Of a stretch of 64,000 nucleotides of DNA, positions 12,877 through 63,328 are shown piece after piece. Every line of letters starts with the position of its first letter. Within the stretch, counting starts at the first letter, position 1. Source of the DNA: Actinomycetes bacterium (GTDB lineage Bacteria; Actinomycetota; Acidimicrobiia; Acidimicrobiales; Bog-793); assembly GCA_021809805.1 (NCBI GenBank), contig JAJZKA010000002.1:3907-67906 (forward strand). Direction: 5' to 3'. The translations under genes and the position numbers were made by a program. A model generated the notes under the pieces. That model ran no database searches. It was not told the origin of the DNA and saw nothing but the letters and a program-made list of their open reading frames with translations.

Positions 12877-13861
12877 CGAGCACGGCAGTGGCGTGCCAGT
12901 GAACCTCTCGCCGGGGGGGCGCCCCTTGGGACAGCGAGATCCACACGCCTCGCCCGTCCAGCGGGTGCAGGTCGACCTCAGCGCGCCACAATTCCAGGTC
13001 GCTGCCAAGAACCCGAAGCGGACAGAGCGCACGACACTCGTGTTCTTCTTGCTTGCGCTCGCCGGCTTTGCTGGCTTCGGCGCTGCCTATACCCAAAACG
13101 CCAGCAACTTCTTGCTCGGGCTCTCGATGGCCCTTGGCCTGTTGATGTTCGGCTTCGGCGTCGCGTCGTGGGGAATGTTCCTCATGCCGCGGGGCCCATT
13201 CGAAGAGCCGCGGGCGTTGATGCAAACGACTCCTGAAGAGAAGCGCCTGTTCCTTGGGGACTTCGAGAGCCGGGGCAAGGTCGCCATCGAGCGTCGCGGC
13301 TTCCTCGCCAAGGCGATGGGGGCGGCTGCTGCCGTGCTCGGCATCGTGACAGCATTCCCGCTGATTCGTTCGCTCGGCCCGCTGCCGAAAAAGAGCTTGT
13401 ATAGGACGAAATGGCGCAAGGGTTCGTATGTCACCGACATCAACAATCGCCGCGTGAAGGTCGATGACATCGACGTCGGCAGCATGGTGACGGTTTTCCC
13501 CCAAGATGACGTGGGTGGAGCGATCTCCCAGACCGTCCTGTTACACCCCCAGACGACGGACATCGTGACGATGACGGGTCGCGAGACGTGGGCCCCCCAG
13601 GGCTTCATCGCGTTCTCCAAGGTGTGCACCCACGCTGGTTGCCCGGTCGGTCTCTACGAGCAGGCGACTGAGCAGCTGTTGTGCCCATGCCACCAGTCGC
13701 TCTTCGACATCTACTCGGGAGCTGAGCCGGTCTTTGGACCCGCCCCGCGACCGCTGCCGCAGCTGCCGCTCTATATCGACTCGCGCGGCTATATCCGGGC
13801 TCAGACCGGTTACGACGAGCCGGTTGGCCCGGGCTTTTGGGAACGCGGGGGGACGACGTGA
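12869..13861 (+). CDS. qcrA: Menaquinol-cytochrome c reductase Rieske iron-sulfur subunit
   Basis: Rieske boxes CTHAGCPV and CPCHQSLF. The ATG at 12869 overlaps the qcrC end by 8 nt. The upstream part of the track ORF (from 12647) lies inside qcrC. Confidence 0.9.
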   Translation: MSDEHGSGVPVNLSPGGRPLGQRDPHASPVQRVQVDLSAPQFQVAAKNPKRTERTTLVFFLLALAGFAGFGAAYTQNASNFLLGLSMALGLLMFGFGVASWGMFLMPRGPFEEPRALMQTTPEEKRLFLGDFESRGKVAIERRGFLAKAMGAAAAVLGIVTAFPLIRSLGPLPKKSLYRTKWRKGSYVTDINNRRVKVDDIDVGSMVTVFPQDDVGGAISQTVLLHPQTTDIVTMTGRETWAPQGFIAFSKVCTHAGCPVGLYEQATEQLLCPCHQSLFDIYSGAEPVFGPAPRPLPQLPLYIDSRGYIRAQTGYDEPVGPGFWERGGTT

Positions 13862-15351
13862 TCGACCGCTTGTTCAACTGGATGGACGACCGGCTCGCGA
13901 TTTCGCGTGGCGGCCGGCACCTCCTGAACAAGATCTTCCCGGACCACTGGAGCTTCATGCTCGGTGAGATCGCGCTGTACTCGTTCATCGTCTTGCTTTT
14001 GACGGGCATCTTCCTCACGCTGTACTTCGTCCCGTCCGAGGCCACGACGATCTACCACGGCAGTTACCGGCCGCTCGACGGGGCGCACGTGTCCGAAGCG
14101 TTCGCGTCGACCGTGAACCTCTCATTCGCGGTGCGCGGCGGCCTGCTCGTACGCCAGATGCACCACTGGGCCGCCAACATCTTCGTGGGCTCGATCGTCG
14201 TCCACATGCTGCGCGTCTTTTTCACCGGCGCGTTCCGCCGCCCTCGCGAGGTCAACTGGATCATTGGCGCCAACCTGTTGATCCTTGCGATCTTCAATGG
14301 CTTCCTCGGCTATTCGCTGCCGGACGACCTCGTCTCGGGTACCGGTATCCGGATCGCCTTCTCGATTCTTGAGTCCGTGCCGTTCGTTGGCAGCTATCTC
14401 GCCTTTTTCCTCTTTGGCGGTCTGTACCCGGGCAACGGTGCGATCATCCCCCGCTTTTTCATCATCCACGTCTTGATCTTGCCGCTCATCATCTTGGGAC
14501 TCCTCGGTGCCCACCTCGGTCTGCTCGTGCGCCATAAGCACACCCAGTTCAAGCAGCCGGGCGCCCGCGAGGACAACGTCGTTGGCACCCCGCTGTGGCC
14601 GAGTTTCATGACCAAGACGCTGGGCTTCTTCTTCTTGACCACCGGCGTCACGGCCCTGTTGGGTGCGCTCGTCCAGATCAACCCGATCTGGCAATACGGG
14701 CAGTACTACCCCTGGAAGGTGAGCTACGCGGTTCAGCCTGACTGGTACATGGGCTGGCTCGACGGCGCGCTGCGCATCATGCCGAGCTGGGAGATCCATC
14801 TCCCCGGCCATATGATCCCGAACGCCTTCTTCCCTGGCGTGTTGCTGCCGGGGGTGACCTTTACGGTCATCATGCTGTGGCCCTTCTTGGAGGCCAAGCT
14901 CACCGGGGAGCATGTCCGCGAGCATCATCTCCTCGACCGGCCCCGCGACCGTCCCGTTCGGACGGCGACCGGCGCGGCGGTGTTCGCGTTCTACTTCGTC
15001 CTCTTCGGGGCGAGCGCGACGGACGTGCTCGCCAACTACCTGTCGATCACCTTGAACACGGTGCTGTGGACATTCCGCATCGCGGCCATCGTCGTGCCGA
15101 TCATTGTCTGGCCGATCGCGTACAGGATCTGCAAGGAACTGCAGCGCACCCCGAACGCCGGTAAGCGCAAGGTGCACAACATCGTGGTGCGCGACGCGAA
15201 TGGCGGTTACCGGACCATCCCGGCCGAGGAGTACCCCGGCTACGTCGGTGCCGAGCTCGAGCCGCTCGACGTCGAGAAGATCGAGGTCCTCACGGCGGCG
15301 GGCAAAGTCACCGAGCCGGGCGTCTACGAGATCCCCCGCGACTACCGCTGA
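13858..15351 (+). CDS. qcrB: Menaquinol-cytochrome c reductase cytochrome b subunit
   Basis: Cytochrome b sequence (FPDHWSFMLGEIALYSF, RQMHHWAANIF, FFIIHVLILP). The GTG at 13858 overlaps the qcrA stop (GTGA). Confidence 0.9.
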   Translation: MIDRLFNWMDDRLAISRGGRHLLNKIFPDHWSFMLGEIALYSFIVLLLTGIFLTLYFVPSEATTIYHGSYRPLDGAHVSEAFASTVNLSFAVRGGLLVRQMHHWAANIFVGSIVVHMLRVFFTGAFRRPREVNWIIGANLLILAIFNGFLGYSLPDDLVSGTGIRIAFSILESVPFVGSYLAFFLFGGLYPGNGAIIPRFFIIHVLILPLIILGLLGAHLGLLVRHKHTQFKQPGAREDNVVGTPLWPSFMTKTLGFFFLTTGVTALLGALVQINPIWQYGQYYPWKVSYAVQPDWYMGWLDGALRIMPSWEIHLPGHMIPNAFFPGVLLPGVTFTVIMLWPFLEAKLTGEHVREHHLLDRPRDRPVRTATGAAVFAFYFVLFGASATDVLANYLSITLNTVLWTFRIAAIVVPIIVWPIAYRICKELQRTPNAGKRKVHNIVVRDANGGYRTIPAEEYPGYVGAELEPLDVEKIEVLTAAGKVTEPGVYEIPRDYR

Positions 15352-15423
15352 GCCTCGCGCCCGCCTGCTCGCCGGAGCCCCTTGATCGAGATCGCCGCTT
15401 CGCGCTGACTGGCCGCGGCGCGG

Positions 15424-15496
15424 AGCCGGTGGTGGGGCTCGAACCCACGACCTGACGATTACAAATCGCCTGCGCTACCAACTGCGCCACACCGGC
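15424..15496 (-). tRNA. tRNA-Thr (anticodon UGU)
   Basis: The minus strand reads GCCGGTGTGGCGCAGTTGGTAGCGCAGGCGATTTGTAATCGTCAGGTCGTGGGTTCGAGCCCCACCACCGGCT. It folds by hand into a cloverleaf with a 7-bp acceptor stem, a GTTCGAGC T-loop and anticodon loop UU-UGU-AA. CCA is not fully encoded. Confidence 0.9.
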
Positions 15497-15745: not shown

Positions 15746-17521
15746 CTAGGGCGCTGTTGAACAACGCTCTTCACAGCCGGCCCGACCGGGCGTAGCGTTT
15801 CCTCGGGTCCTCGGGGGTAAGCCTGCACCGAAGAGCCGGAGTTGAGGGGGAAGATCCGGTCGCGCTGGTCTTGGCCTTTGGCCAACAGGTGTCGTGCCCT
15901 CCTTAGGACGCTCCCGAGGGCCCATCACGTCGTCGCGAGCACCCAGTTCCCGTCTTGTCTCGTCAGCCCGAGCACGACGAGCCTGCGCAGGTTCAACGCC
16001 GCGACGCGCCGGTGCGCCCAGGCCTCGTTCCGCTCGACGCCGCGATAGCGCAGGCGCCGGTTCCCCTTCGCGACGAGCCAGGAGATCGTGCGCTCGGCCA
16101 TCGGGCGGTGCTTTCGATAGGTGCCGCGCAGCTCCTCGTCTTGCCAGGCGGCCCTCGCCGCGACGAGCTCCCGGTCGTGCTCGGAGACGGTGAAGCTGCG
16201 CGACGCGGCCTTCGTGCAGCGAACCTTGAGCGGGCAGACCGCACAGTGCGGGGCGAACTTCGCGGTGCCGGCCCTGGACACCGAAGCCGTGTGACCCGCC
16301 GGGCAGGTGACCGTGCGGGCGTCGTGGTCGACGGCGAAGTCATCACGGACGAAGCCGCCAGGGAGGACGGAGCGGGACGGGAGCGGCTTGATGACGAGGC
16401 GGTGGCGGCGCTCCCCGAGGTCGCTGCGTGTCGTCCCCGATCCGTAGGCGGAGTCGGCGAGGACCTCGAGGCCGTCCGGCTCGTCCTCCATCAGCTCGAC
16501 GCCGGTCGGTCCGTCGGGGGGCGTTCGCCGGCGTGATCTTGACGGCGGTGACGATCCCGGTGTCCGGCTCGCTGGCGAGATGCGCCTTGAAGCCGTCGGT
16601 CCGCACGGCGGTCGATTCACGCCCGCGGCGGGCCTCGACATCGACGGTCGAGATCACCCGGTCCTTCGCGACCTTCTTCGCGATCTTCCAGCTGCCGGGG
16701 GTCTCGCCGGGCTCGACGTCCTGGCCGGCCACGAGGGCGAGCAGGCCGATCGTGTCGGCGGCGAGCTCGCTCGACGGGCTCTCCTGCGCGGCGGCGAGGA
16801 CCGCTTCGGCGTCATGGACGAGGCCGGTGACGATGGCGTCGCGCGCAGACTGGTCCGACCATTCGATGACCGGCTTGCCGCCCTCGTCGGTGGCGGTCGA
16901 GAGCGAGACGAGGGCCGCCTCGGGGACCGCCCGGCGCACCTTCCTGATCGCGGAGATGAGCTGGGTCACGGTGTCCTGGGTGGCGACGGCGTCGTCGAGG
17001 ATCGTCGAGTCGAGGGCGCGGCGCGTCTTCTTCGCGAGGACCCCGGTCGCCTCGACGACGGAGCGCACCGCGTCGAAGATCCGCTGCGGGCGCTCGGAGC
17101 GGCGAAGGCGCGTCCGCCAGTAGGTGAGGACGGTGAAGTCAAAGCCCGGGTCGTCGAGGGCGAGCCCGCAGGCGACCTTCCAGTCGATGCGCGTCCGCAG
17201 CTGGCGGATCGCGTCGCGGTCCGACAGCCCCTCCAGGGCCTGCAGGACCATCACCGAGCAGACGAGCACCGCGGGGATCGAGGGGCGGCCGCGACCGGAG
17301 GGGAAGAGGTCCGCGAACTCCTCCTCCTGGAAGAGCTCTAGTCGGTGATCGGCTAAGAACGCATAGACGGTCCCGTCCTCGACGAGGCCCCGGCAGAAGA
17401 CCGCGGCGTCGAGCATCCGGCGGTCAGGAGTGGCTTTTCCCTGCATGGGACAAGTCTCGTCCGCGCCCGGGCAAATCGCGAGCACCCGCGACGGGGGGCG
17501 ATTAAATCAACAGCGCCCTAG
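15746..17521 (-). mobile_element. Insertion sequence, IS1182/IS5 superfamily, about 1.78 kb, bounded by 15-nt perfect terminal inverted repeats
   Basis: CTAGGGCGCTGTTGA at 15746-15760 is the exact reverse complement of TCAACAGCGCCCTAG at 17507-17521. These enclose the transposase reading frames. The outer CTAG could be either IR or target duplication, because it is palindromic. Confidence 0.8.
15925..17485 (-). pseudogene. IS1182-family DDE transposase, split into two frames by a single-base frameshift in a C6 run (plus-strand G6 at 16516-16521)
   Basis: ORF 16343-17485 carries the DUF772-type N-terminal region (FLADHRLELFQEEEFADLFPSGRGRPSIPAVL) and stays meaningful until ...ITPANAP. ORF 15925-16641 becomes meaningful from PPDGPTGVELMEDEPDGLEVLADSAYGSG (DDE region). 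The two join at ACGCCCCCCGACGG. Confidence 0.8.
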
Positions 17522-19696: not shown

Positions 19697-20938
19697 CTAG
19701 CTTGCCCCGTCCGGCGGTGGCGTCGTCGCGCGGAGCCGCCAGGCGTGCTCGGCTCGCGCCATCACCTCGCGCACGGCCAGACCCTGGTCGAGCGCCACCT
19801 TGCGGGCGTCTTCGTATTCGACCTTGGCGCGCCCGGGACTGACCTTGATACGCACCGGTTGTCCGGCGACCTCGACTTGCTCGAAGTGCCGCGAGGTTGC
19901 GTATCGCCCGACGACGCTGGCGCGCACGCCGAACGATCCGGTTTCGCGCGCCAGGGCGAGCCGCAGCACCTCCGCGAGGGCGGGGTCGGCAAGGGCGCTG
20001 ACGAGGTGCCCCGGTCGGCCTTTCTTCATCACGACCGGGGTTACCCAGCAGTCGGCCGCACCCGCGCTGAGCAACGCGTCGATCGCCGCGGCGAGCTGCT
20101 CGCCCGTCGCGTCGTCCACGTTCGCCTCGAGGAGGATGAGCGGCTGGCCGCCCGGTGCGGTGTCCGGCGATGCCTCGAGCCGCATGGGGCGCGAGCCCAG
20201 GACGACCTGGGTGCAATTCGGTAAGCCGTCGAGGTCGCGGCTGCCTGCGCCATAGCCGGTGGCCTCGACCGTCATCGCCGGGAGCGGGCCGAAGCGCTCG
20301 ACCGTCGCCGCCAAGATCGCGGCGCCGGTCGGCGTGGTGAGCTCGACGTCGACGTCACGACCGGTCATGGGCGCGCCCGCGAGCAGCCCGAGCACCGCGG
20401 GTGACGGGTTCGGCAAGAGCCCGTGCTGGGCGCGGACGAAACCGGTGCCGGTGGCGACCGGACCGGCGGCGACCTCGTCGATGCCGAGCAGCTCGAGAGC
20501 GGTCATCGTGCCGACGATGTCGACCAGGGTGTCGTGGCCGCCGACCTCGTGGAAGTGGACTTGGGCGATCGGGCGCCGGTGCAGCCGCCCCTCCACGTCG
20601 GCGAGCGCGGCCAGGGTCGCCTCTGCGCGCCGGGCGACCCTTGTCGGCAATTTGGCGGCCTGGATGAGGGCGAGCAGCGCGGGATAGGTGCGCACAACGG
20701 CGTCCTCGCGGACCTCGACCTCGACACGCGTGGCAGCGATCCCACCGCGCAGCACCGCGGAGGACTCAATTCCCCAGCCGCCGATTGGCAGGCGCCGCAG
20801 CATCGTCTCGATCTCGCGCAGATCCGCGCCCGCGTCGACGAGGCTGCCGAGCGCCATGTCGCCGGCGATGCCGGCGAAGCAGTTGAACCACGCGACGCGG
20901 GCGGTCGGGGTGCTTGGGGCCTGTGGTGGTACGGACAT
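19697..20938 (-). CDS. larC: Nickel-pincer cofactor biosynthesis protein LarC (nickel insertion, DUF111 family)
   Basis: VAWFNCFAGIAGDMALGSLVDAGADL is the N-terminal LarC/DUF111 signature. The likely start is the ATG at 20938 (MSVPPQ...), 11 nt after the larB stop. The track ORF extends to 21028. Confidence 0.85.
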   Translation of the reverse strand: MSVPPQAPSTPTARVAWFNCFAGIAGDMALGSLVDAGADLREIETMLRRLPIGGWGIESSAVLRGGIAATRVEVEVREDAVVRTYPALLALIQAAKLPTRVARRAEATLAALADVEGRLHRRPIAQVHFHEVGGHDTLVDIVGTMTALELLGIDEVAAGPVATGTGFVRAQHGLLPNPSPAVLGLLAGAPMTGRDVDVELTTPTGAAILAATVERFGPLPAMTVEATGYGAGSRDLDGLPNCTQVVLGSRPMRLEASPDTAPGGQPLILLEANVDDATGEQLAAAIDALLSAGAADCWVTPVVMKKGRPGHLVSALADPALAEVLRLALARETGSFGVRASVVGRYATSRHFEQVEVAGQPVRIKVSPGRAKVEYEDARKVALDQGLAVREVMARAEHAWRLRATTPPPDGAS

Positions 20939-20949
20939 GTCGCAGCGAC

Positions 20950-21732
20950 TCAGGCGAGCATCCGGGCGACGGCACAGGCGGCGCCGAACCCGTTGTCGAT
21001 GCCAACGACGCTGATCCCAGATGCGCACGAGGCGTGCATCGCCAAGAGCGCGGTGACCCCGTCGAGCCCGGCGCCATAGCCGACGCTGGTGGGCACGGCG
21101 ACAATCGGAGCCGAGGTCAGGCCGCCCACGATGCTTGCGAGTGCCCCTTCCATGCCGGCGACCACGATCACCGCGTCGGCGTCGCTGAGCTCGTCAAGCG
21201 ATGCGAACAGCCGGTGCACGCCGGCGACTCCGCAGTCGGCGAGCTGGTGGGGCACGAAGCCGTACGCGCTGAGGGTGCTGTGGCATTCGGCCGCGACGGG
21301 GAGGTCGGCCGTGCCCGCGGTGAGCACCAGGACGCGACCCTCCCGGCGCGGCGCCCGTCGCCATGCCACGAGCGAGTGCTCGCCGGGGACGGGCGAGGTC
21401 CCGGTGATCTCCCCGCCCGGACAGCGGCGAAGCGTCGTCTCCACCTGGAGCGGCGTCGCCCGCGTGAGGAGCACGGGACCACTGCCGTGCTCGAGCAGCT
21501 CTTCGACGATCGCGGCGCAGTGTTCTGGTGCCTTGCCCGGTCCAAAGACCGCCTCAGGCAGGCCCTGGCGCATCGCGCGGTGGTGGTCGATACGGGCGAA
21601 GCCGAGGTCGGCGAAGGGGAGGCGCCGCAACAGGGTCGCTGCCTCCTCGACCGAGCGCTCGCCGCTCTGTACGGCCTTCAATAGGGTCTCGAGATCCTCG
21701 TGGTCCATGAGGCTTACTATCCTGCCAGCCAT
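20950..21732 (-). CDS. larB: Nickel-pincer cofactor biosynthesis protein LarB (PurE-like NaAD carboxylase/hydrolase)
   Basis: A PurE-like C-terminal half (VLVLTAGTADLPVAAEC ... VIVVAGMEGALASIVGGLTSAPIVAVPTSVGYG). An alternative start is the ATG at 21708 (MDHEDLETLL). Confidence 0.85.
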   Translation of the reverse strand: MAGRIVSLMDHEDLETLLKAVQSGERSVEEAATLLRRLPFADLGFARIDHHRAMRQGLPEAVFGPGKAPEHCAAIVEELLEHGSGPVLLTRATPLQVETTLRRCPGGEITGTSPVPGEHSLVAWRRAPRREGRVLVLTAGTADLPVAAECHSTLSAYGFVPHQLADCGVAGVHRLFASLDELSDADAVIVVAGMEGALASIVGGLTSAPIVAVPTSVGYGAGLDGVTALLAMHASCASGISVVGIDNGFGAACAVARMLA

Positions 21733-57971: not shown

Positions 57972-58208
57972 TCAGCTCTCGACGACGTCCCCGAGGAGCT
58001 CGACCTGTACGCCCTCGCTCTCCAGCCAGGAAATCGCCTCGTCGATGGCCGCCGCCTCACCCGAAAGCTCGCACACGATCCAACCCGAGTGCTCCTCGAC
58101 GCTGGCGCGCCGGATGTTGGGCTCAACCGGGAAGCGGCGCGCGAGGTGGGCGAGCACCGGCTCGCGCACGAGCGCGTCCGGGAAGACGAGGCGGACGCGA
58201 ACGCTCAT
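57972..58208 (-). CDS. Stand-alone NIL-domain protein (78 aa)
   Basis: MSVRVRLVFPDALVREPVLAHLARRFPVEPNIRRASVEEHSGWIVCELSGEAAAIDEAISWLESEGVQVELL matches the NIL (MetN C-terminal-like) beta-alpha-beta pattern. The gene starts 19 nt after the larE stop. Confidence 0.7.
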   Translation of the reverse strand: MSVRVRLVFPDALVREPVLAHLARRFPVEPNIRRASVEEHSGWIVCELSGEAAAIDEAISWLESEGVQVELLGDVVES

Positions 58209-58227
58209 TGGCGTCAGCCTAGGCGCG

Positions 58228-59085
58228 TCACGTGCCGGCGGCACCTGCCTCGCGCTGCAGGGCGGCAAGTGCGAGGTTGCCCGATCGGAACCCTTCGAGG
58301 TCCAAGGTGACGTAGCGGTATCCGGCAGCCTTGAGGGTCTCGACGACGGCCTCGCGTCGCTCGACGACGGCGACGAGATCCTCGAGTGGCACCTCGATGC
58401 GGGCGCTCTGGTCGTGATGGCGCACGCGCAGCTGGGCGAAGCCGAGGCTGCGCAGTCCGGACTCGGCGCGCGCGATCTGCTCGAGACGCGAGGAGGTAAC
58501 CGACGTTCCGTGGGGCAGTCGTGAGGCAAGGCAGGCGGCCGCAGGCTTGTCGAAGGTGCGCAGGCCGAGGGCCTCAGAATGGCGGCGAACCAGGGCTTTG
58601 GTGAACCCGGCCTCGACGAGGGGGAAGCGCGCCCCCTGCTCGGCCGCGGCGGCCTGTCCGGGCCGGTGCTCTCCGAGGTCGTCGAGGTTGACCCCAAGGA
58701 CGACCGTGGCCGACTCGGCCGCGGCGAGCGGGCCGAGCACCGCCATCAGCTCGCTCTTGCAATGAAAGCAGCGGTCGAGGTCGTTGCGGACGTAATCGGG
58801 GTTGTCGAGCTCGGAAGTGCGTGGTGTGACGTGCCGCAGCCCCCACTCGCTCGCGAGCGTCTTGGTGTCCTCGAGTTCCTCGGGAGCGAGCGAGGCCGAC
58901 TGCGCCGTCGCGCACAGCACGCGCTCGCGCCCGAGGGTGTCGGTCGCGACCTTGGCGAGCAAGGCCGAGTCGGCCCCGCCGGAGAAGGCGACCACGACCC
59001 GGTCGAGCGAGCGCAGCACGTGCGCGAGCGCCTCAAGCGTGCCGGCATCTCCCACGGCGTGCGGCGTGTTGGGCCGGAGGCTCAC
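58228..59085 (-). CDS. larE: PP-loop ATP pyrophosphatase of the LarE family (NPN-cofactor sulfur transferase), three-Cys type
   Basis: PP-loop VVVAFSGGADSALL. CxxC in DRCFHCKSEL, plus a third Cys in AAACLASRLPHG. The GTG at 59085 overlaps the hemQ stop (GTGA). Confidence 0.8.
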   Translation of the reverse strand: MSLRPNTPHAVGDAGTLEALAHVLRSLDRVVVAFSGGADSALLAKVATDTLGRERVLCATAQSASLAPEELEDTKTLASEWGLRHVTPRTSELDNPDYVRNDLDRCFHCKSELMAVLGPLAAAESATVVLGVNLDDLGEHRPGQAAAAEQGARFPLVEAGFTKALVRRHSEALGLRTFDKPAAACLASRLPHGTSVTSSRLEQIARAESGLRSLGFAQLRVRHHDQSARIEVPLEDLVAVVERREAVVETLKAAGYRYVTLDLEGFRSGNLALAALQREAGAAGT

Positions 59086-59795
59086 CGCAGGGCCGCCAGG
59101 ACCTCGGCGGGGCTGGCAACCGTGCCGACGACGAACGGGCCGAACTCGGCAAAGCGCGCTGATGCCTCGTCGAAGCGCATCGTGTAGACGCAGGCCTTGA
59201 TGTCGTCGAGCTCCCTCGCGAACAAGGTGACGCCCCACTCGTAGTCGTCGAGGCCGGTCGAACCGGTCACGAGTTGGAGGACCCGGCCGGCAAAGCGCCG
59301 ACCGCTCTTGCCGTGGCCGTACATGAGCTCGAGGCGGTCCTCGTAGCCGAGCTGGTACCAGTTGTCTTCGGCGAGGCGGCGCTTGGACATCGGATAAAAG
59401 CAGAAGGCGTTCATGCCATCGGGGGGAAGCGCGGGGTGCAGCCGCGCCTGAAGCAGGTGGTTCGGCAGTCCCGTGGCGTATTCGGAGACTTCGGTGATCG
59501 ACACGTAGGACCAGCTCGGAGTGCACCCAGCTCGCGCCAGCGCGCTCTGCAGGCTGCGCAGCCGGACCTCTGATGGGCCGAGCGCCATGACGGCGAGATC
59601 GGCCTTGTGGCCGAGCAGAGCGGCCATCACGACCTGGTGCTCGCCGGCCTGGCAGTCCTTGATGGCGAGCTCGATCGCCTGGGGATCGTGGCCAGGAGCG
59701 AGGTGGCAGAACAGGTGGAGAACCCGCCAGCCGGCGATCGTCGCGTGGTCATCGCGCGGCTCGCTGGGCGCGCTTGGTTGGGCTGCTTCGGGCAC
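59082..59795 (-). CDS. hemQ: Coproheme decarboxylase (HemQ/ChdC, chlorite-dismutase family)
   Basis: FCFYPMSKRR, YEWGVTLFA, and DIKACVYTMRFDEASARFAEFGPFVVG, typical of actinobacterial HemQ. Confidence 0.85.
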   Translation of the reverse strand: MPEAAQPSAPSEPRDDHATIAGWRVLHLFCHLAPGHDPQAIELAIKDCQAGEHQVVMAALLGHKADLAVMALGPSEVRLRSLQSALARAGCTPSWSYVSITEVSEYATGLPNHLLQARLHPALPPDGMNAFCFYPMSKRRLAEDNWYQLGYEDRLELMYGHGKSGRRFAGRVLQLVTGSTGLDDYEWGVTLFARELDDIKACVYTMRFDEASARFAEFGPFVVGTVASPAEVLAALR

Positions 59796-59904: not shown

Positions 59905-61594
<1,690 letters not shown>

Positions 61595-61635
61595 TAGCAA
61601 ACCACGCGCTGCCGAGTCGCGCAACCGCGTGGCGC

Positions 61636-61911
61636 CTAGCCCCCGGCGACGGCGGGCACGACCGAAAGCGTCTGGCCGTCGCTCACCGGCGTATCGATGC
61701 CCTTCAGGAAACGGACGTCCTCGTCGGCGAGGAAGACGTTGACGAAGCGACGCAGGTTGCCGTCCTCATCGAGGAGGCGCTCGCGCATTCCCGGGTGCGC
61801 CTGTTCGAGGCCTTCGAACACCTCGGCGACGGTGGCGCCCTCCACGGCGACCTCGCCGGCGCCCCCCGTCAGGGAGCGGAGCTGGGCGGGGATGCGGACG
61901 ATGACGCTCAT
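61636..61911 (-). CDS. MoaD/ThiS/CysO-family sulfur-carrier protein (91 aa, C-terminal Gly-Gly)
   Basis: MSVIVRIPAQLRSLTGGAGEVAVEGATVAEVFEGLEQAHPGMRERLLDEDGNLRRFVNVFLADEDVRFLKGIDTPVSDGQTLSVVPAVAGG. It has a beta-grasp pattern, ends in GG then the stop, and its ATG overlaps the upstream stop (ATGA). Confidence 0.85.
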   Translation of the reverse strand: MSVIVRIPAQLRSLTGGAGEVAVEGATVAEVFEGLEQAHPGMRERLLDEDGNLRRFVNVFLADEDVRFLKGIDTPVSDGQTLSVVPAVAGG

Positions 61912-63149
61912 CGGATGCCTCCTGCGGCCCGGTCGGCCGCGACGAATGCTTCGAGGGACGGGGGAATCACATAGCTCGGGCCGACGGCGTCGCCGAGGGC
62001 CTCGACGGTCTTGAGGCCGTTGCCGGTGACATAGGCCACGACGCGCTCGTCGGTGCCGATCGCGCCCTCGGCAGCGAGCTTGGCCAGCGTGGCGATCGTG
62101 ACGCCACCGGCGGTCTCGGCGAAGATCCCCTCGGTGCGTGCGAGCAGCGAGATCGCCTCGAGGATCTCGGCGTCGCTCACGGCCCCGATGCGGCCTCCGC
62201 TCGAGCGGACCACCTCGAGCGCATACCAGCCATCCGCCGGGTTCCCGATCGCCAGGGACTTGGCGATCGTGTCGGGGCGCACGGGGCGGATCGTGTCGGA
62301 TCCCTCCGCAAAGGCGGTGGCCACCGGCGAGCACCCGAGCGCCTGGGCCCCCGAGACCCGCACCGGGTGCGGCTCGACGAGTCCCACTTTGGCAAGCTCG
62401 CCGAATCCCTTGTGGATCTTGGTGAGCTGGCTGCCCGAGGCGATCGGGACGACGACGTGGTCAGGCAGCTGCCAACCGAGCTGTTCTGCTACCTCGAAGG
62501 CAAGCGTCTTTGAGCCCTCCGAGTAGTAGGGGCGGATGTTGACATTGACAAAGGCCCATTCGGGACGATCGCTCGCCAGCTCGGCGCACAGCCGGTTGAC
62601 GTCGTCGTAGTTGCCCTCGACTGCGACGAGGTGGCCCCCAAAGACCGCCGTCGTCGCCACCTTCACCCGCTCGAGGTTGGCGGGGATGAAGACGTAGGAC
62701 TCCATGCCCGCGCGGGCCGCCGCCGCCGCCACGGCGTTGGCGAGGTTGCCGGTCGAGGCACAGGCCGCGACCTTCAGGCCGAGCTCACGCGCCTTGGTCA
62801 GCGCGACGCCGACGACACGGTCTTTGAACGAGCCGGTCGGATTGCGGGTGTCGTCTTTCAGCCAGAGCTCGCCGAGGCCGAGCTCGGCGCCCAGGCGGTC
62901 CGCGCGGACAAGGGGCGTGAAGCCGGGGTTGAGATCGGCACCGGCGGGACCGGCCACCGGGAGCAAGTCGACGTAGCGCCAGATGCTGGGTGGCCCGGCG
63001 CCGATGCGCTCTTTGGTGACTCGGGCCGCGATCGCGTCGTAGTCGTAGGCAACCTCGAGGGGTCCAAAGCAGTAGTCGCAGACATGCAGCGCCTCGGCTG
63101 GATAGGCGCGATGGCATTCACGACAGACCAGGCCTTGCACGAACCCCAC
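61908..63149 (-). CDS. Threonine-synthase-family PLP enzyme with an N-terminal 4-Cys zinc ribbon. The predicted function is carrier-protein-dependent homocysteine synthase rather than ThrC.
   Basis: CRECHRAYPAEALHVCDYCFGPLE ribbon, the PLP-lysine region NPTGSFKDRV, and ASTGNLANAVAA. The GTG at 63149 is preceded by GGGAGGA. Track-ORF residues upstream of it are the riboswitch read as protein. Confidence 0.8.
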   Translation of the reverse strand: MGFVQGLVCRECHRAYPAEALHVCDYCFGPLEVAYDYDAIAARVTKERIGAGPPSIWRYVDLLPVAGPAGADLNPGFTPLVRADRLGAELGLGELWLKDDTRNPTGSFKDRVVGVALTKARELGLKVAACASTGNLANAVAAAAARAGMESYVFIPANLERVKVATTAVFGGHLVAVEGNYDDVNRLCAELASDRPEWAFVNVNIRPYYSEGSKTLAFEVAEQLGWQLPDHVVVPIASGSQLTKIHKGFGELAKVGLVEPHPVRVSGAQALGCSPVATAFAEGSDTIRPVRPDTIAKSLAIGNPADGWYALEVVRSSGGRIGAVSDAEILEAISLLARTEGIFAETAGGVTIATLAKLAAEGAIGTDERVVAYVTGNGLKTVEALGDAVGPSYVIPPSLEAFVAADRAAGGIR

Positions 63150-63154
63150 GGTTC

Positions 63155-63262
63155 CTCCCTCATCGGTCGGGCATTGGCACCTCGCACCGGAGCTCTCTCC
63201 GGCACTGGTTGCCGCGGCGTCACAGGGCCCGTCCCTCAGCCGCTCTGGATGATCAACCCCAG
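63155..63262 (-). ncRNA. SAM riboswitch, SAM-I clan (SAM-I core without a canonical P4; SAM-IV or SAM-I/IV-like)
   Basis: Minus strand: UUGAUCAUCCAGAGCGGCUGAGGGACGGGCCCUGUGACGCCGCGGCAACCAGUGCCGGAGAGAGCUCCGGUGCGAGGUGCCAAUGCCCGACCGAUGAGGGAGG. This matches the S-box core (UCAUC/GAUGA P1, CAGAG, GAGGGA, GGCCC, UGA, GCAACC, GGUGCCAAU) recalled from the Rfam consensus. The 3' strand of P1 abuts the SD. Confidence 0.8.
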
Positions 63263-63328
63263 TGTGGACGACACAGCGCGGCCTCGTCAAAGGGGGCGAC
63301 GTTGCCACCCGGTGGGTCAGGGGGAAAA

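Follow-up and report, generated by a model that had tools for sequence, protein, structure and literature searches.

In Streptomyces albulus, homocysteine is formed from O-phosphohomoserine by MetM, a homologue of the threonine synthase ThrC, together with the sulfur carrier MetO (Hasebe et al. 2024, Appl Environ Microbiol 90:e01247-24). An S-adenosylmethionine (SAM) riboswitch was described upstream of S. albulus metM, and MetM prevents methionine auxotrophy (PMC12172450). GapMind lists the steps MetO, Mec, MoeZ and MetM with the MetO-thiocarboxylate as sulfur donor, and it is remarked there that MetM "is often misannotated" as threonine synthase (GapMind 2026, 10.1101/2024.10.14.618325). A 2026 preprint gives the scheme of MetM plus MetO for Streptomyces and reports MetM to be 33% identical to ThrC of Bacillus subtilis. 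Here we describe a gene pair of this kind in a stretch of 64,000 nucleotides (nt), hereafter called the window, with a G+C content of 69% (GenBank assembly GCA_021809805.1, contig JAJZKA010000002.1, positions 3,907 to 67,906). Unlike Streptomyces, which belongs to the class Actinomycetes, the host of the window is a member of the Acidimicrobiia. One gene encodes an enzyme of the ThrC family that depends on pyridoxal 5'-phosphate (PLP), the other a small sulfur carrier, and judging by sequence the pair is very probably a metM-metO operon for a SAM-repressed route that leads from O-phosphohomoserine and a protein thiocarboxylate to homocysteine. This reading of the pair is correct rather than new, as the pathway has been known since 2024 and is already built into the GapMind annotation tool.

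Two further systems invite comparison. In CysM/CysO/Mec/MoeZ of Mycobacterium tuberculosis, as in the scheme predicted here, a PLP enzyme of fold type II adds the thiocarboxylate of a carrier with a Gly-Gly end to an activated amino acid. In contrast, the enzyme of the window is of the ThrC type and not of the CysM or O-acetylserine sulfhydrylase (OASS) type, and neither mec nor cysM lies next to it. By analogy, its predicted substrate is O-phosphohomoserine and its predicted product homocysteine, whereas CysM/CysO employs O-phosphoserine. Krishnamoorthy and Begley reportedly described in 2011 a protein-thiocarboxylate dependent homocysteine synthesis by HcyS, HcyD, HcyF and MetY in Wolinella succinogenes. 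There as well, the thiocarboxylate of a ubiquitin-like carrier is said to donate the sulfur of homocysteine. However, MetY is a fold-type I enzyme that uses O-acetylhomoserine and works with a carrier in need of processing, whereas the window enzyme is of fold type II and presumably uses O-phosphohomoserine.

The locus resembles the Streptomyces metM-metO locus in the order of its parts: a SAM-I riboswitch is followed by the ThrC-homologous PLP enzyme and then by a ThiS/CysO-type carrier with a Gly-Gly end, with otsA-gpgS upstream and groEL2 downstream. The original prediction, made from the letters of this DNA, had named the core of this arrangement, and all three of its elements were recovered: a ThrC-family gene with an N-terminal CxxC...CxxC ribbon (matching PALP and TIGR00260, with C9, C12, C24 and C27), an ATGA overlap leading into a Gly-Gly carrier of 91 residues, and a SAM riboswitch directly ahead of the pair. 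The metM open reading frame (ORF) runs on the minus strand from a GTG at 63149 to a TGA at 61910-61908. We preferred this form of 413 residues over a longer ORF reaching to 63308, because the latter would cross the riboswitch; public gene calls likewise give 413 residues. The ATG of metO at 61911 overlaps the stop codon of metM (ATGA, 61911-61908), and MetO, which matches Pfam ThiS with 3.6e-14, terminates with PAVAGG in front of a TAG. The riboswitch scores 61.4 bits against RF00162 (gathering score 44.4, E = 8e-12, cmscan) and its aptamer ends 8 nt ahead of the GTG, while no other riboswitch was detected in the 64 kb.

Support for the predicted homocysteine route comes from orthology and gene context. 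A pattern and tblastn scan, in which each GTDB species was represented by a single genome, yielded 80 loci. Most of them are from Actinomycetes, with 22 Streptomyces and Kitasatospora species among them, and two are from Acidimicrobiales. MetM of the window is 55-59% identical to its counterparts in these 22 species (residues 1-405) and 75-77% identical to those of other Acidimicrobiales. A MetO homologue (49-65% identity; 54-59% in Streptomyces/Kitasatospora) follows metM directly in 22 of 22 Streptomyces/Kitasatospora loci and likewise in most loci of Streptosporangiales and Propionibacteriales. Several Streptomyces/Kitasatospora loci even have the same 4-nt overlap of metM and metO as the window, four further genomes of Acidimicrobiales retain the coupled pair, and a Gly-Gly carrier is translationally or closely coupled to metM in 50 of the 80 loci scanned. 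A SAM-I riboswitch precedes metM in all eight loci compared with Rfam and, according to an nhmmer profile, in all 80 loci with upstream sequence. In addition, the order otsA, gpgS (divergent), riboswitch-metM-metO, an optional cold-shock gene (csp) and groEL2 is common to lineages from Acidimicrobiales through Streptomyces. Based on this positional orthology across the phylum, we filed the pair as metM-metO. Hence the homocysteine route proposed by the original prediction finds support in the riboswitch, the gene order, the flanking genes and the sequence identities of both proteins, and the Streptomyces MetM/MetO system that it had named as a precedent does exist (Hasebe et al. 2024; GapMind 2026; PMC12172450).

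Some further observations concern the same loci. The synteny from otsA to groEL2 is unusually deep for a biosynthetic gene pair. Five loci from Streptomyces, Kitasatospora and Streptosporangiales were examined for the cold-shock gene and carry it between metO and groEL2, whereas none is present between metO and groEL of the window. The genes SCO4293-SCO4296 of Streptomyces coelicolor presumably match the layout with the cold-shock gene. Streptomyces orthologues of MetM share 33.8-34.1% of their residues with B. subtilis ThrC, which agrees with the 33% reported for MetM. The closest named relatives of the window MetM are proteins from metagenome-assembled genomes of Acidimicrobiaceae and Acidimicrobiales, and several third-party metagenome assemblies contain contigs with identical copies of it, such as contig DAHZTO010000037.1 of GCA_027408235.1. 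A scan of viral contigs found no relatives.

The pair is not complete everywhere. At about 30 loci, found in Micromonosporaceae, Geodermatophilaceae, Jatrophihabitans and some other lineages, metM and its riboswitch stand without a MetO homologue within 8 kb (loci L007-L033, L035, L044, L049, L054 and L063), while the Cys4 ribbon and the signature residues of MetM are still conserved. In these cases the gene for the carrier lies at another place in the genome, or else MetM uses a different sulfur donor. One might consequently ask if MetM is a direct sulfhydrylase that joins O-phosphohomoserine and free sulfide, with MetO being dispensable or a shared carrier of the CysO type that also, or mainly, serves cysteine formation. 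Besides the metO-less loci, the use of Na2S to mimic MetM activity in vitro (PMC12172450) fits a direct sulfhydrylase, and MetO and CysO being near-indistinguishable paralogues fits a shared carrier. However, the 4-nt overlap behind one common riboswitch, together with a coupling that is kept in Acidimicrobiales, in all 22 Streptomyces/Kitasatospora loci and in most loci of Streptosporangiales and Propionibacteriales, argues for a joint function; the published pathway has the MetO-thiocarboxylate as donor (10.1101/2024.10.14.618325), and no cysM is found nearby. We thus consider a direct sulfhydrylase, or a carrier shared with cysteine synthesis, rather unlikely.

The carrier itself was compared with its solved relatives. 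Two CysO proteins match best, that of Amycolatopsis orientalis (4n6e_B, 9e-23) and that of M. tuberculosis (3dwg_C, 7e-20), to which MetO is 50% and 47% identical, respectively, compared to 54-59% for the MetO proteins of Streptomyces/Kitasatospora. The gene context does not identify MetO as the partner of a CysM: neither cysM nor mec lies next to metO, and the sole PLP enzyme nearby is of the ThrC type, with no JAB domain protein in the neighbourhood. The possibility, raised along with the original prediction, that the carrier is the MoaD of molybdopterin synthase can be set aside as well, since neither moaE nor any other Moa gene is present in the window and the nearest solved relatives are CysO and not MoaD. 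An AVAGG motif is present in all MetO homologues of the loci scanned and is terminal in most of them. Six carry one additional Cys after the Gly-Gly (L053, L065, L066, L077, L080 and L083) and two have longer tails (L050 and L064); these proteins belong to several Streptomyces, Kitasatospora and Marmoricola. Such additional C-terminal residues fit the reported need for Mec, which would have to trim them. In contrast, every MetO seen in Acidimicrobiales has Gly-Gly as its very last residues, and as this holds for the window MetO, it should need no C-terminal trimming prior to activation.

The second partner requires a closer look, as it is readily mistaken for a threonine synthase. MetM matches Pfam PALP with 2e-73, passes TIGR00260 (thrC) with 291.5 bits at a cut-off of 167.1 and reaches 303.2 bits against NF006050 ("threonine synthase"), which is borderline at a cut-off of 303. 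Evidently, both models cover proteins of the MetM type too. Against TIGR01138, representing the CysM/OASS type, it gains just 46.5 bits over residues 76-193. An AlphaFold2 model of the protein encoded at 61911-63149 was obtained with high confidence (predicted local distance difference test, pLDDT, 94.5; predicted template modelling score, pTM, 0.92), including residues 1-30 (pLDDT 89-95). Its nearest folds are bacterial ThrCs, with template modelling (TM) scores of 0.76-0.77 normalised to the model and 0.86-0.92 normalised to the target, at 36-39% identity, and no structure closer to MetM than these was found in the copy of the PDB that was searched. The structures compared were those of Thermus thermophilus (1UIM/1V7C), M. 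tuberculosis (2D1F), Aquifex aeolicus (2ZSJ) and B. subtilis (6CGQ). With them MetM shares the fold, the PLP lysine and the S-T-G-N loop. Unlike them, it has an additional N-terminal Cys4 ribbon of about 50 residues, stands under control of a SAM riboswitch and is coupled to a sulfur carrier. The Arabidopsis threonine synthase 2C2B aligned to the model over 441-444 columns (TM 0.83-0.88, normalised to the model). This is the SAM-activated plant enzyme. Because 2C2B covers more of the model than the bacterial ThrCs do, the N-terminal 55 residues of MetM may overlay the plant N-terminal domain.

Differences that set MetM apart from ThrC are found in the active site. We verified the residue numbering of T. 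thermophilus ThrC by alignment to 1UIM and take K61 to be the PLP lysine, S84-N87 the carboxylate loop, and T88, N154, S155 and R160 the phosphate site. The lysine (K109 in MetM), the loop S84-T85-G86-N87 (S132-T133-G134-N135) and N154 (N202) are kept. However, T88 is replaced by L136, S155 by N204 and R160 by Y209, while an arginine, R206, is now found in the place of N157. Of the four residues that presumably bind phosphate, three are thereby substituted (T88L, S155N, R160Y). All these MetM residues are invariant across 84 actinobacterial orthologues, with the exception of N204, which is conserved in 83 of 84 (Thr in one); residues 207-215 belonged to the search pattern for the loci, hence their conservation is not independent evidence, whereas L136, N202, N204, R206 and the four Cys lie outside of it. 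The clade can be recognised by STGNL combined with R206-P-Y-Y209, and the Streptomyces MetM proteins show the same STGNL/RPYY signature along with the same Cys4 ribbon. As a simple rule, STGNL plus R-P-Y/F-Y-x-E-G-S-K-T would separate MetM-type proteins from true ThrC.

The ribbon is a different matter. It has the form C9-x2-C12 ... C24-x2-C27 and all four Cys are invariant in the 84 orthologues. The original prediction had listed it among the observed features. An alignment of 38 ribbon-bearing representatives of the family revealed that distant members keep the canonical NPYR motif of ThrC. Thus the ribbon is older than MetM and not diagnostic. We likewise rejected a zinc ribbon that is specific for MetM or docks MetO, as it occurs together with NPYR and also in MetM homologues without an adjacent metO. 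It is the putatively remodelled phosphate site that is diagnostic of MetM on the level of the alignment.

With this, the enzyme can be weighed as a genuine threonine synthase that is regulated by SAM, for instance to balance the threonine and methionine branches, with the small protein being unrelated to its chemistry. The cut-offs of TIGR00260 and NF006050 are passed, the closest solved structures are ThrCs, and all public annotations carry that name. However, the members of the clade have a SAM riboswitch at 80 of 80 loci and a coupled Gly-Gly carrier at 50 of 80, the three substitutions at presumed phosphate-binding positions are invariant, and neither hom nor thrB is located nearby. Furthermore, the Streptomyces member of the syntenic locus is the characterised homocysteine synthase (10.1101/2024.10.14.618325; PMC12172450). 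A threonine synthase is therefore very unlikely. It is just as hard to believe that the pair uses a protein thiocarboxylate in a gamma- or beta-replacement to make another sulfur compound, such as a thio-amino acid needed for some cofactor or natural product, in which case the SAM riboswitch would reflect use of the product in SAM-related chemistry: ThrC paralogues have been recruited elsewhere (cysteate synthase, TIGR03844, a weak match to MetM) and CysO-type carriers were co-opted for thiosugars (PDB 4n6e), but the locus is a conserved core-genome block by groEL2 across the phylum and not a biosynthetic cluster, and the orthologous Streptomyces genes rescue methionine auxotrophy (PMC12172450).

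Several points nevertheless weigh against the metM-metO assignment. The orthology to the characterised system runs through Streptomyces species other than S. albulus. MetM passes the cut-offs of two curated hidden Markov models for threonine synthase, and its closest folds are true ThrCs. For the substituted residues, we presume the phosphate-binding role from the structure papers on T. thermophilus ThrC. MetO is not separable from CysO by sequence, the ranges of identity overlapping, and given the metO-less loci some MetM proteins may not require the carrier. Finally, neither a separate canonical thrC nor a MoeZ-type E1 activating enzyme nor Mec is encoded in the window or the 10 kb beyond. 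The underlying context scan covered about 59 window ORFs, which were compared with Pfam or NCBIfam; for the last 12 kb of the window and the 10 kb following its end, it drew on a precomputed gene table. No ThiF-type E1 and no JAB/JAMM protein was found among these ORFs or in the gene table, as the original prediction had noted for the window. Genes hom, thrB, metX and metY and a second PALP protein were not found within the window either. A second canonical ThrC was absent from the 2.07 Mb of collected loci plus the window, a scope that does not extend to whole genomes.

In terms of regulation, the window differs from what is found in Streptomyces. The aptamers of Streptomyces and Kitasatospora possess P4 and end 55-123 nt ahead of the start codon (nhmmer estimates), whereas the window aptamer lacks P4 and ends 8 nt ahead of it. 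In the cmscan alignment the P4 positions are deleted, hence a four-way junction with P4 was not found. More generally, metM aptamers of actinomycetes are longer (Rfam spans of 127-155 nt versus 99 nt in the window), and their nhmmer hits end mostly 40-128 nt ahead of the inferred start, with three loci at 17-28 nt. The compact layout recurs at five other Acidimicrobiales loci (L061, L086, L087, L088 and L089) and ahead of MetM-like ORFs in 31 metagenome contigs (among L091-L208), which were collected by a pattern specific for the segment from the junction to P1. From P1 to P1, the compact aptamers measure 83-114 nt and comprise three helices. Among 35 unique copies, P1 is an invariant helix of 5 bp, the outer part of P2 shows compensatory changes from G-C to A-U and from C-G to U-A, and P3 is always a hairpin, 15-46 nt long and of unrelated sequence. 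In 33 of the 35, GGAG(G/A) stands directly 3' of the P1 strand GAUG(A/C). At the metM of the window, the 3' strand of P1 finishes with the first three bases of the Shine-Dalgarno sequence GGGAGGA. Two of the six genomic copies (L087 and L088) score under the Rfam gathering threshold, yet are plainly copies of the same RNA. For Actinomycetota, natural SAM-I aptamers without P4 are reported to remain functional, with lower affinity (PMC12714719). Given that such functional forms are already described, we rejected the idea of a new riboswitch variant.

Control is predicted to be probably translational, because the Shine-Dalgarno sequence abuts P1 and a terminator is absent: no terminator-like site was found between aptamer and metM, where space for one is lacking. 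For the same reason, and since the aptamer ends only 8 nt short of the start codon, a mechanism of the terminator type was rejected. Folding the leader by itself to its minimum free energy gave no useful signal (z = -0.13). Upstream of the aptamer, a candidate promoter can be proposed from the sequence TTGACG-18-CACACT. A generic sigma-70 scan did not call it; an element TTGACG-N17/18-CA(C/G)A(C/A)T lies at the same place in three Acidimicrobiales loci (L087-L089).

Taken together, the following course of events might be envisioned. Transcription would start at the conserved TTGACG-18-CACACT element. With abundant SAM, the short P1 would be locked, and as its 3' strand runs into the Shine-Dalgarno sequence 8 nt ahead of the GTG, the 30S subunit could not load and metM would remain untranslated. 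The start of metO lies inside the metM stop codon (ATGA) and would need ribosomes that finish metM, so that metO would be co-repressed by translational coupling. If SAM is low, MetM and MetO would both be made. A MoeZ-like E1 encoded elsewhere would then adenylate and subsequently sulfurate the C-terminal Gly of MetO to give MetO-COSH. On its PLP, MetM would eliminate phosphate from O-phosphohomoserine and add the thiocarboxylate at C-gamma, and a JAMM hydrolase (Mec) would probably free homocysteine from the carrier. This chemistry is inferred by analogy to MetM/MetO of S. albulus, CysM/CysO of M. tuberculosis and HcyS/MetY of Wolinella.

The implications are mainly a matter of annotation and metabolic reconstruction, and no new mechanism is opened. 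What the analysis adds is the placement in Acidimicrobiia, the synteny and riboswitch control throughout the phylum, the residue signature and the compact layout of a putatively translational riboswitch. It extends the pathway described for Streptomyces: the syntenic, riboswitch-controlled metM block reaches into the Acidimicrobiia and includes metO in most sampled lineages. Every named MetM homologue in the protein database is labelled threonine synthase, which looks like systematic misannotation. As a consequence of this name, genome-scale models of Acidimicrobiia and other Actinomycetota will either miss the homocysteine step or invent a second ThrC.

Table 1. Features of the metM-metO locus and of its surroundings (positions refer to the window).
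Feature	Position	Strand	Basis
Promoter-like TTGACG - 18 nt - CACACT	63261..63290	-	read from sequence; 3' end 5 nt ahead of riboswitch
SAM-I aptamer (RF00162), compact, without P4	63157..63255	-	cmscan
Shine-Dalgarno GGGAGGA	63153..63159	-	sequence and cmscan alignment; 3 nt ahead of GTG
metM, 413-residue ThrC-family PLP enzyme with N-terminal Cys4 ribbon	61908..63149	-	domain and family matches, AlphaFold2 model, orthology
metO, 91-residue ThiS/CysO-type carrier with Gly-Gly end	61636..61911	-	Pfam, solved CysO relatives
Weak terminator-like hairpin CCACGCG...CGCGUGG, then UUUG	61596..61636	-	local ViennaRNA fold; low confidence
Perfect CIRCE operator TTAGCACTC-N9-GAGTGCTAA between metO and groEL	61568-61594	-	sequence
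hemQ-larE-NIL block	57972-59795	-	
NIL protein, 78 residues	57972-58208	-	PF09383
larC and larB, overlapping	19697-21732	-	LarC1 and LarC2 domains in larC
DUF772 transposase-family ORF	16343-17485	-	
tRNA gene	15424-15496		

The features of the locus are compiled in Table 1. Upstream, metM is flanked by the divergent genes gpgS (NF010496, 297.7 bits), otsA and otsB; on the downstream side of metO, the CIRCE operator and groEL are followed by hemQ, larE and the gene for the NIL protein. The hairpin behind metO is likely the end of the metM-metO operon, albeit with low confidence; a rule-based terminator scan did not call it. Since a perfect CIRCE operator precedes groEL, the latter should be an HrcA-controlled transcription unit of its own, outside the metM-metO operon. 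The remaining genes of the window are housekeeping genes, among them those for cytochrome oxidase, the bc1 complex and heme synthesis as well as larB-larC, pheA, lon, clpC, radA, disA, carD, ispDF, gltA and folate genes.

The original prediction had also drawn attention to the NIL protein, whose domain is linked to homocysteine synthesis in methanogens. The protein is real, but a place in the metM-metO system was rejected: it is the last gene of hemQ-larE-NIL, and neither NIL nor LarE has a counterpart at any actinomycete metM locus. The order metM-metO-groEL-hemQ-larE-NIL is conserved in four distinct genomes, with MetM identities of 75-100%. In three relatives, the hemQ-larE-NIL block is located at 13393-15198 (L087), 13481-15254 (L088) and 13749-15495 (L089). 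A 4-nt overlap joins hemQ to larE, and another joins larE to the NIL gene in the three relatives, whereas the latter two are 19 nt apart in the window. LarE was identified by TIGR00268 (299 bits versus 150). It is a sacrificial sulfur transferase with an ATP-dependent chemistry that turns a carboxylate into a thiocarboxylate, and we know of no description of a NIL partner for it. It is extremely improbable that this LarE-type PP-loop enzyme, 2.5 kb downstream, charges MetO instead of a MoeZ-type E1, an idea on which the lack of any E1 within about 74 kb bears and in which NIL could be an adaptor or a sensor of methionine or homocysteine. A milder reading is that the MetM/MetO pathway might belong to the ancestral, syntenic core of Actinomycetota and that these Acidimicrobiia might have no other route to homocysteine.

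Two minor observations concern the rest of the window. No user enzyme of the larA type was identified in it, and the genes for the nickel-pincer cofactor are split over two sites, as larC, which overlaps larB, is located 37 kb from larE. The only mobile-element signature seen is the DUF772 transposase-family ORF, about 850 nt from the tRNA gene.

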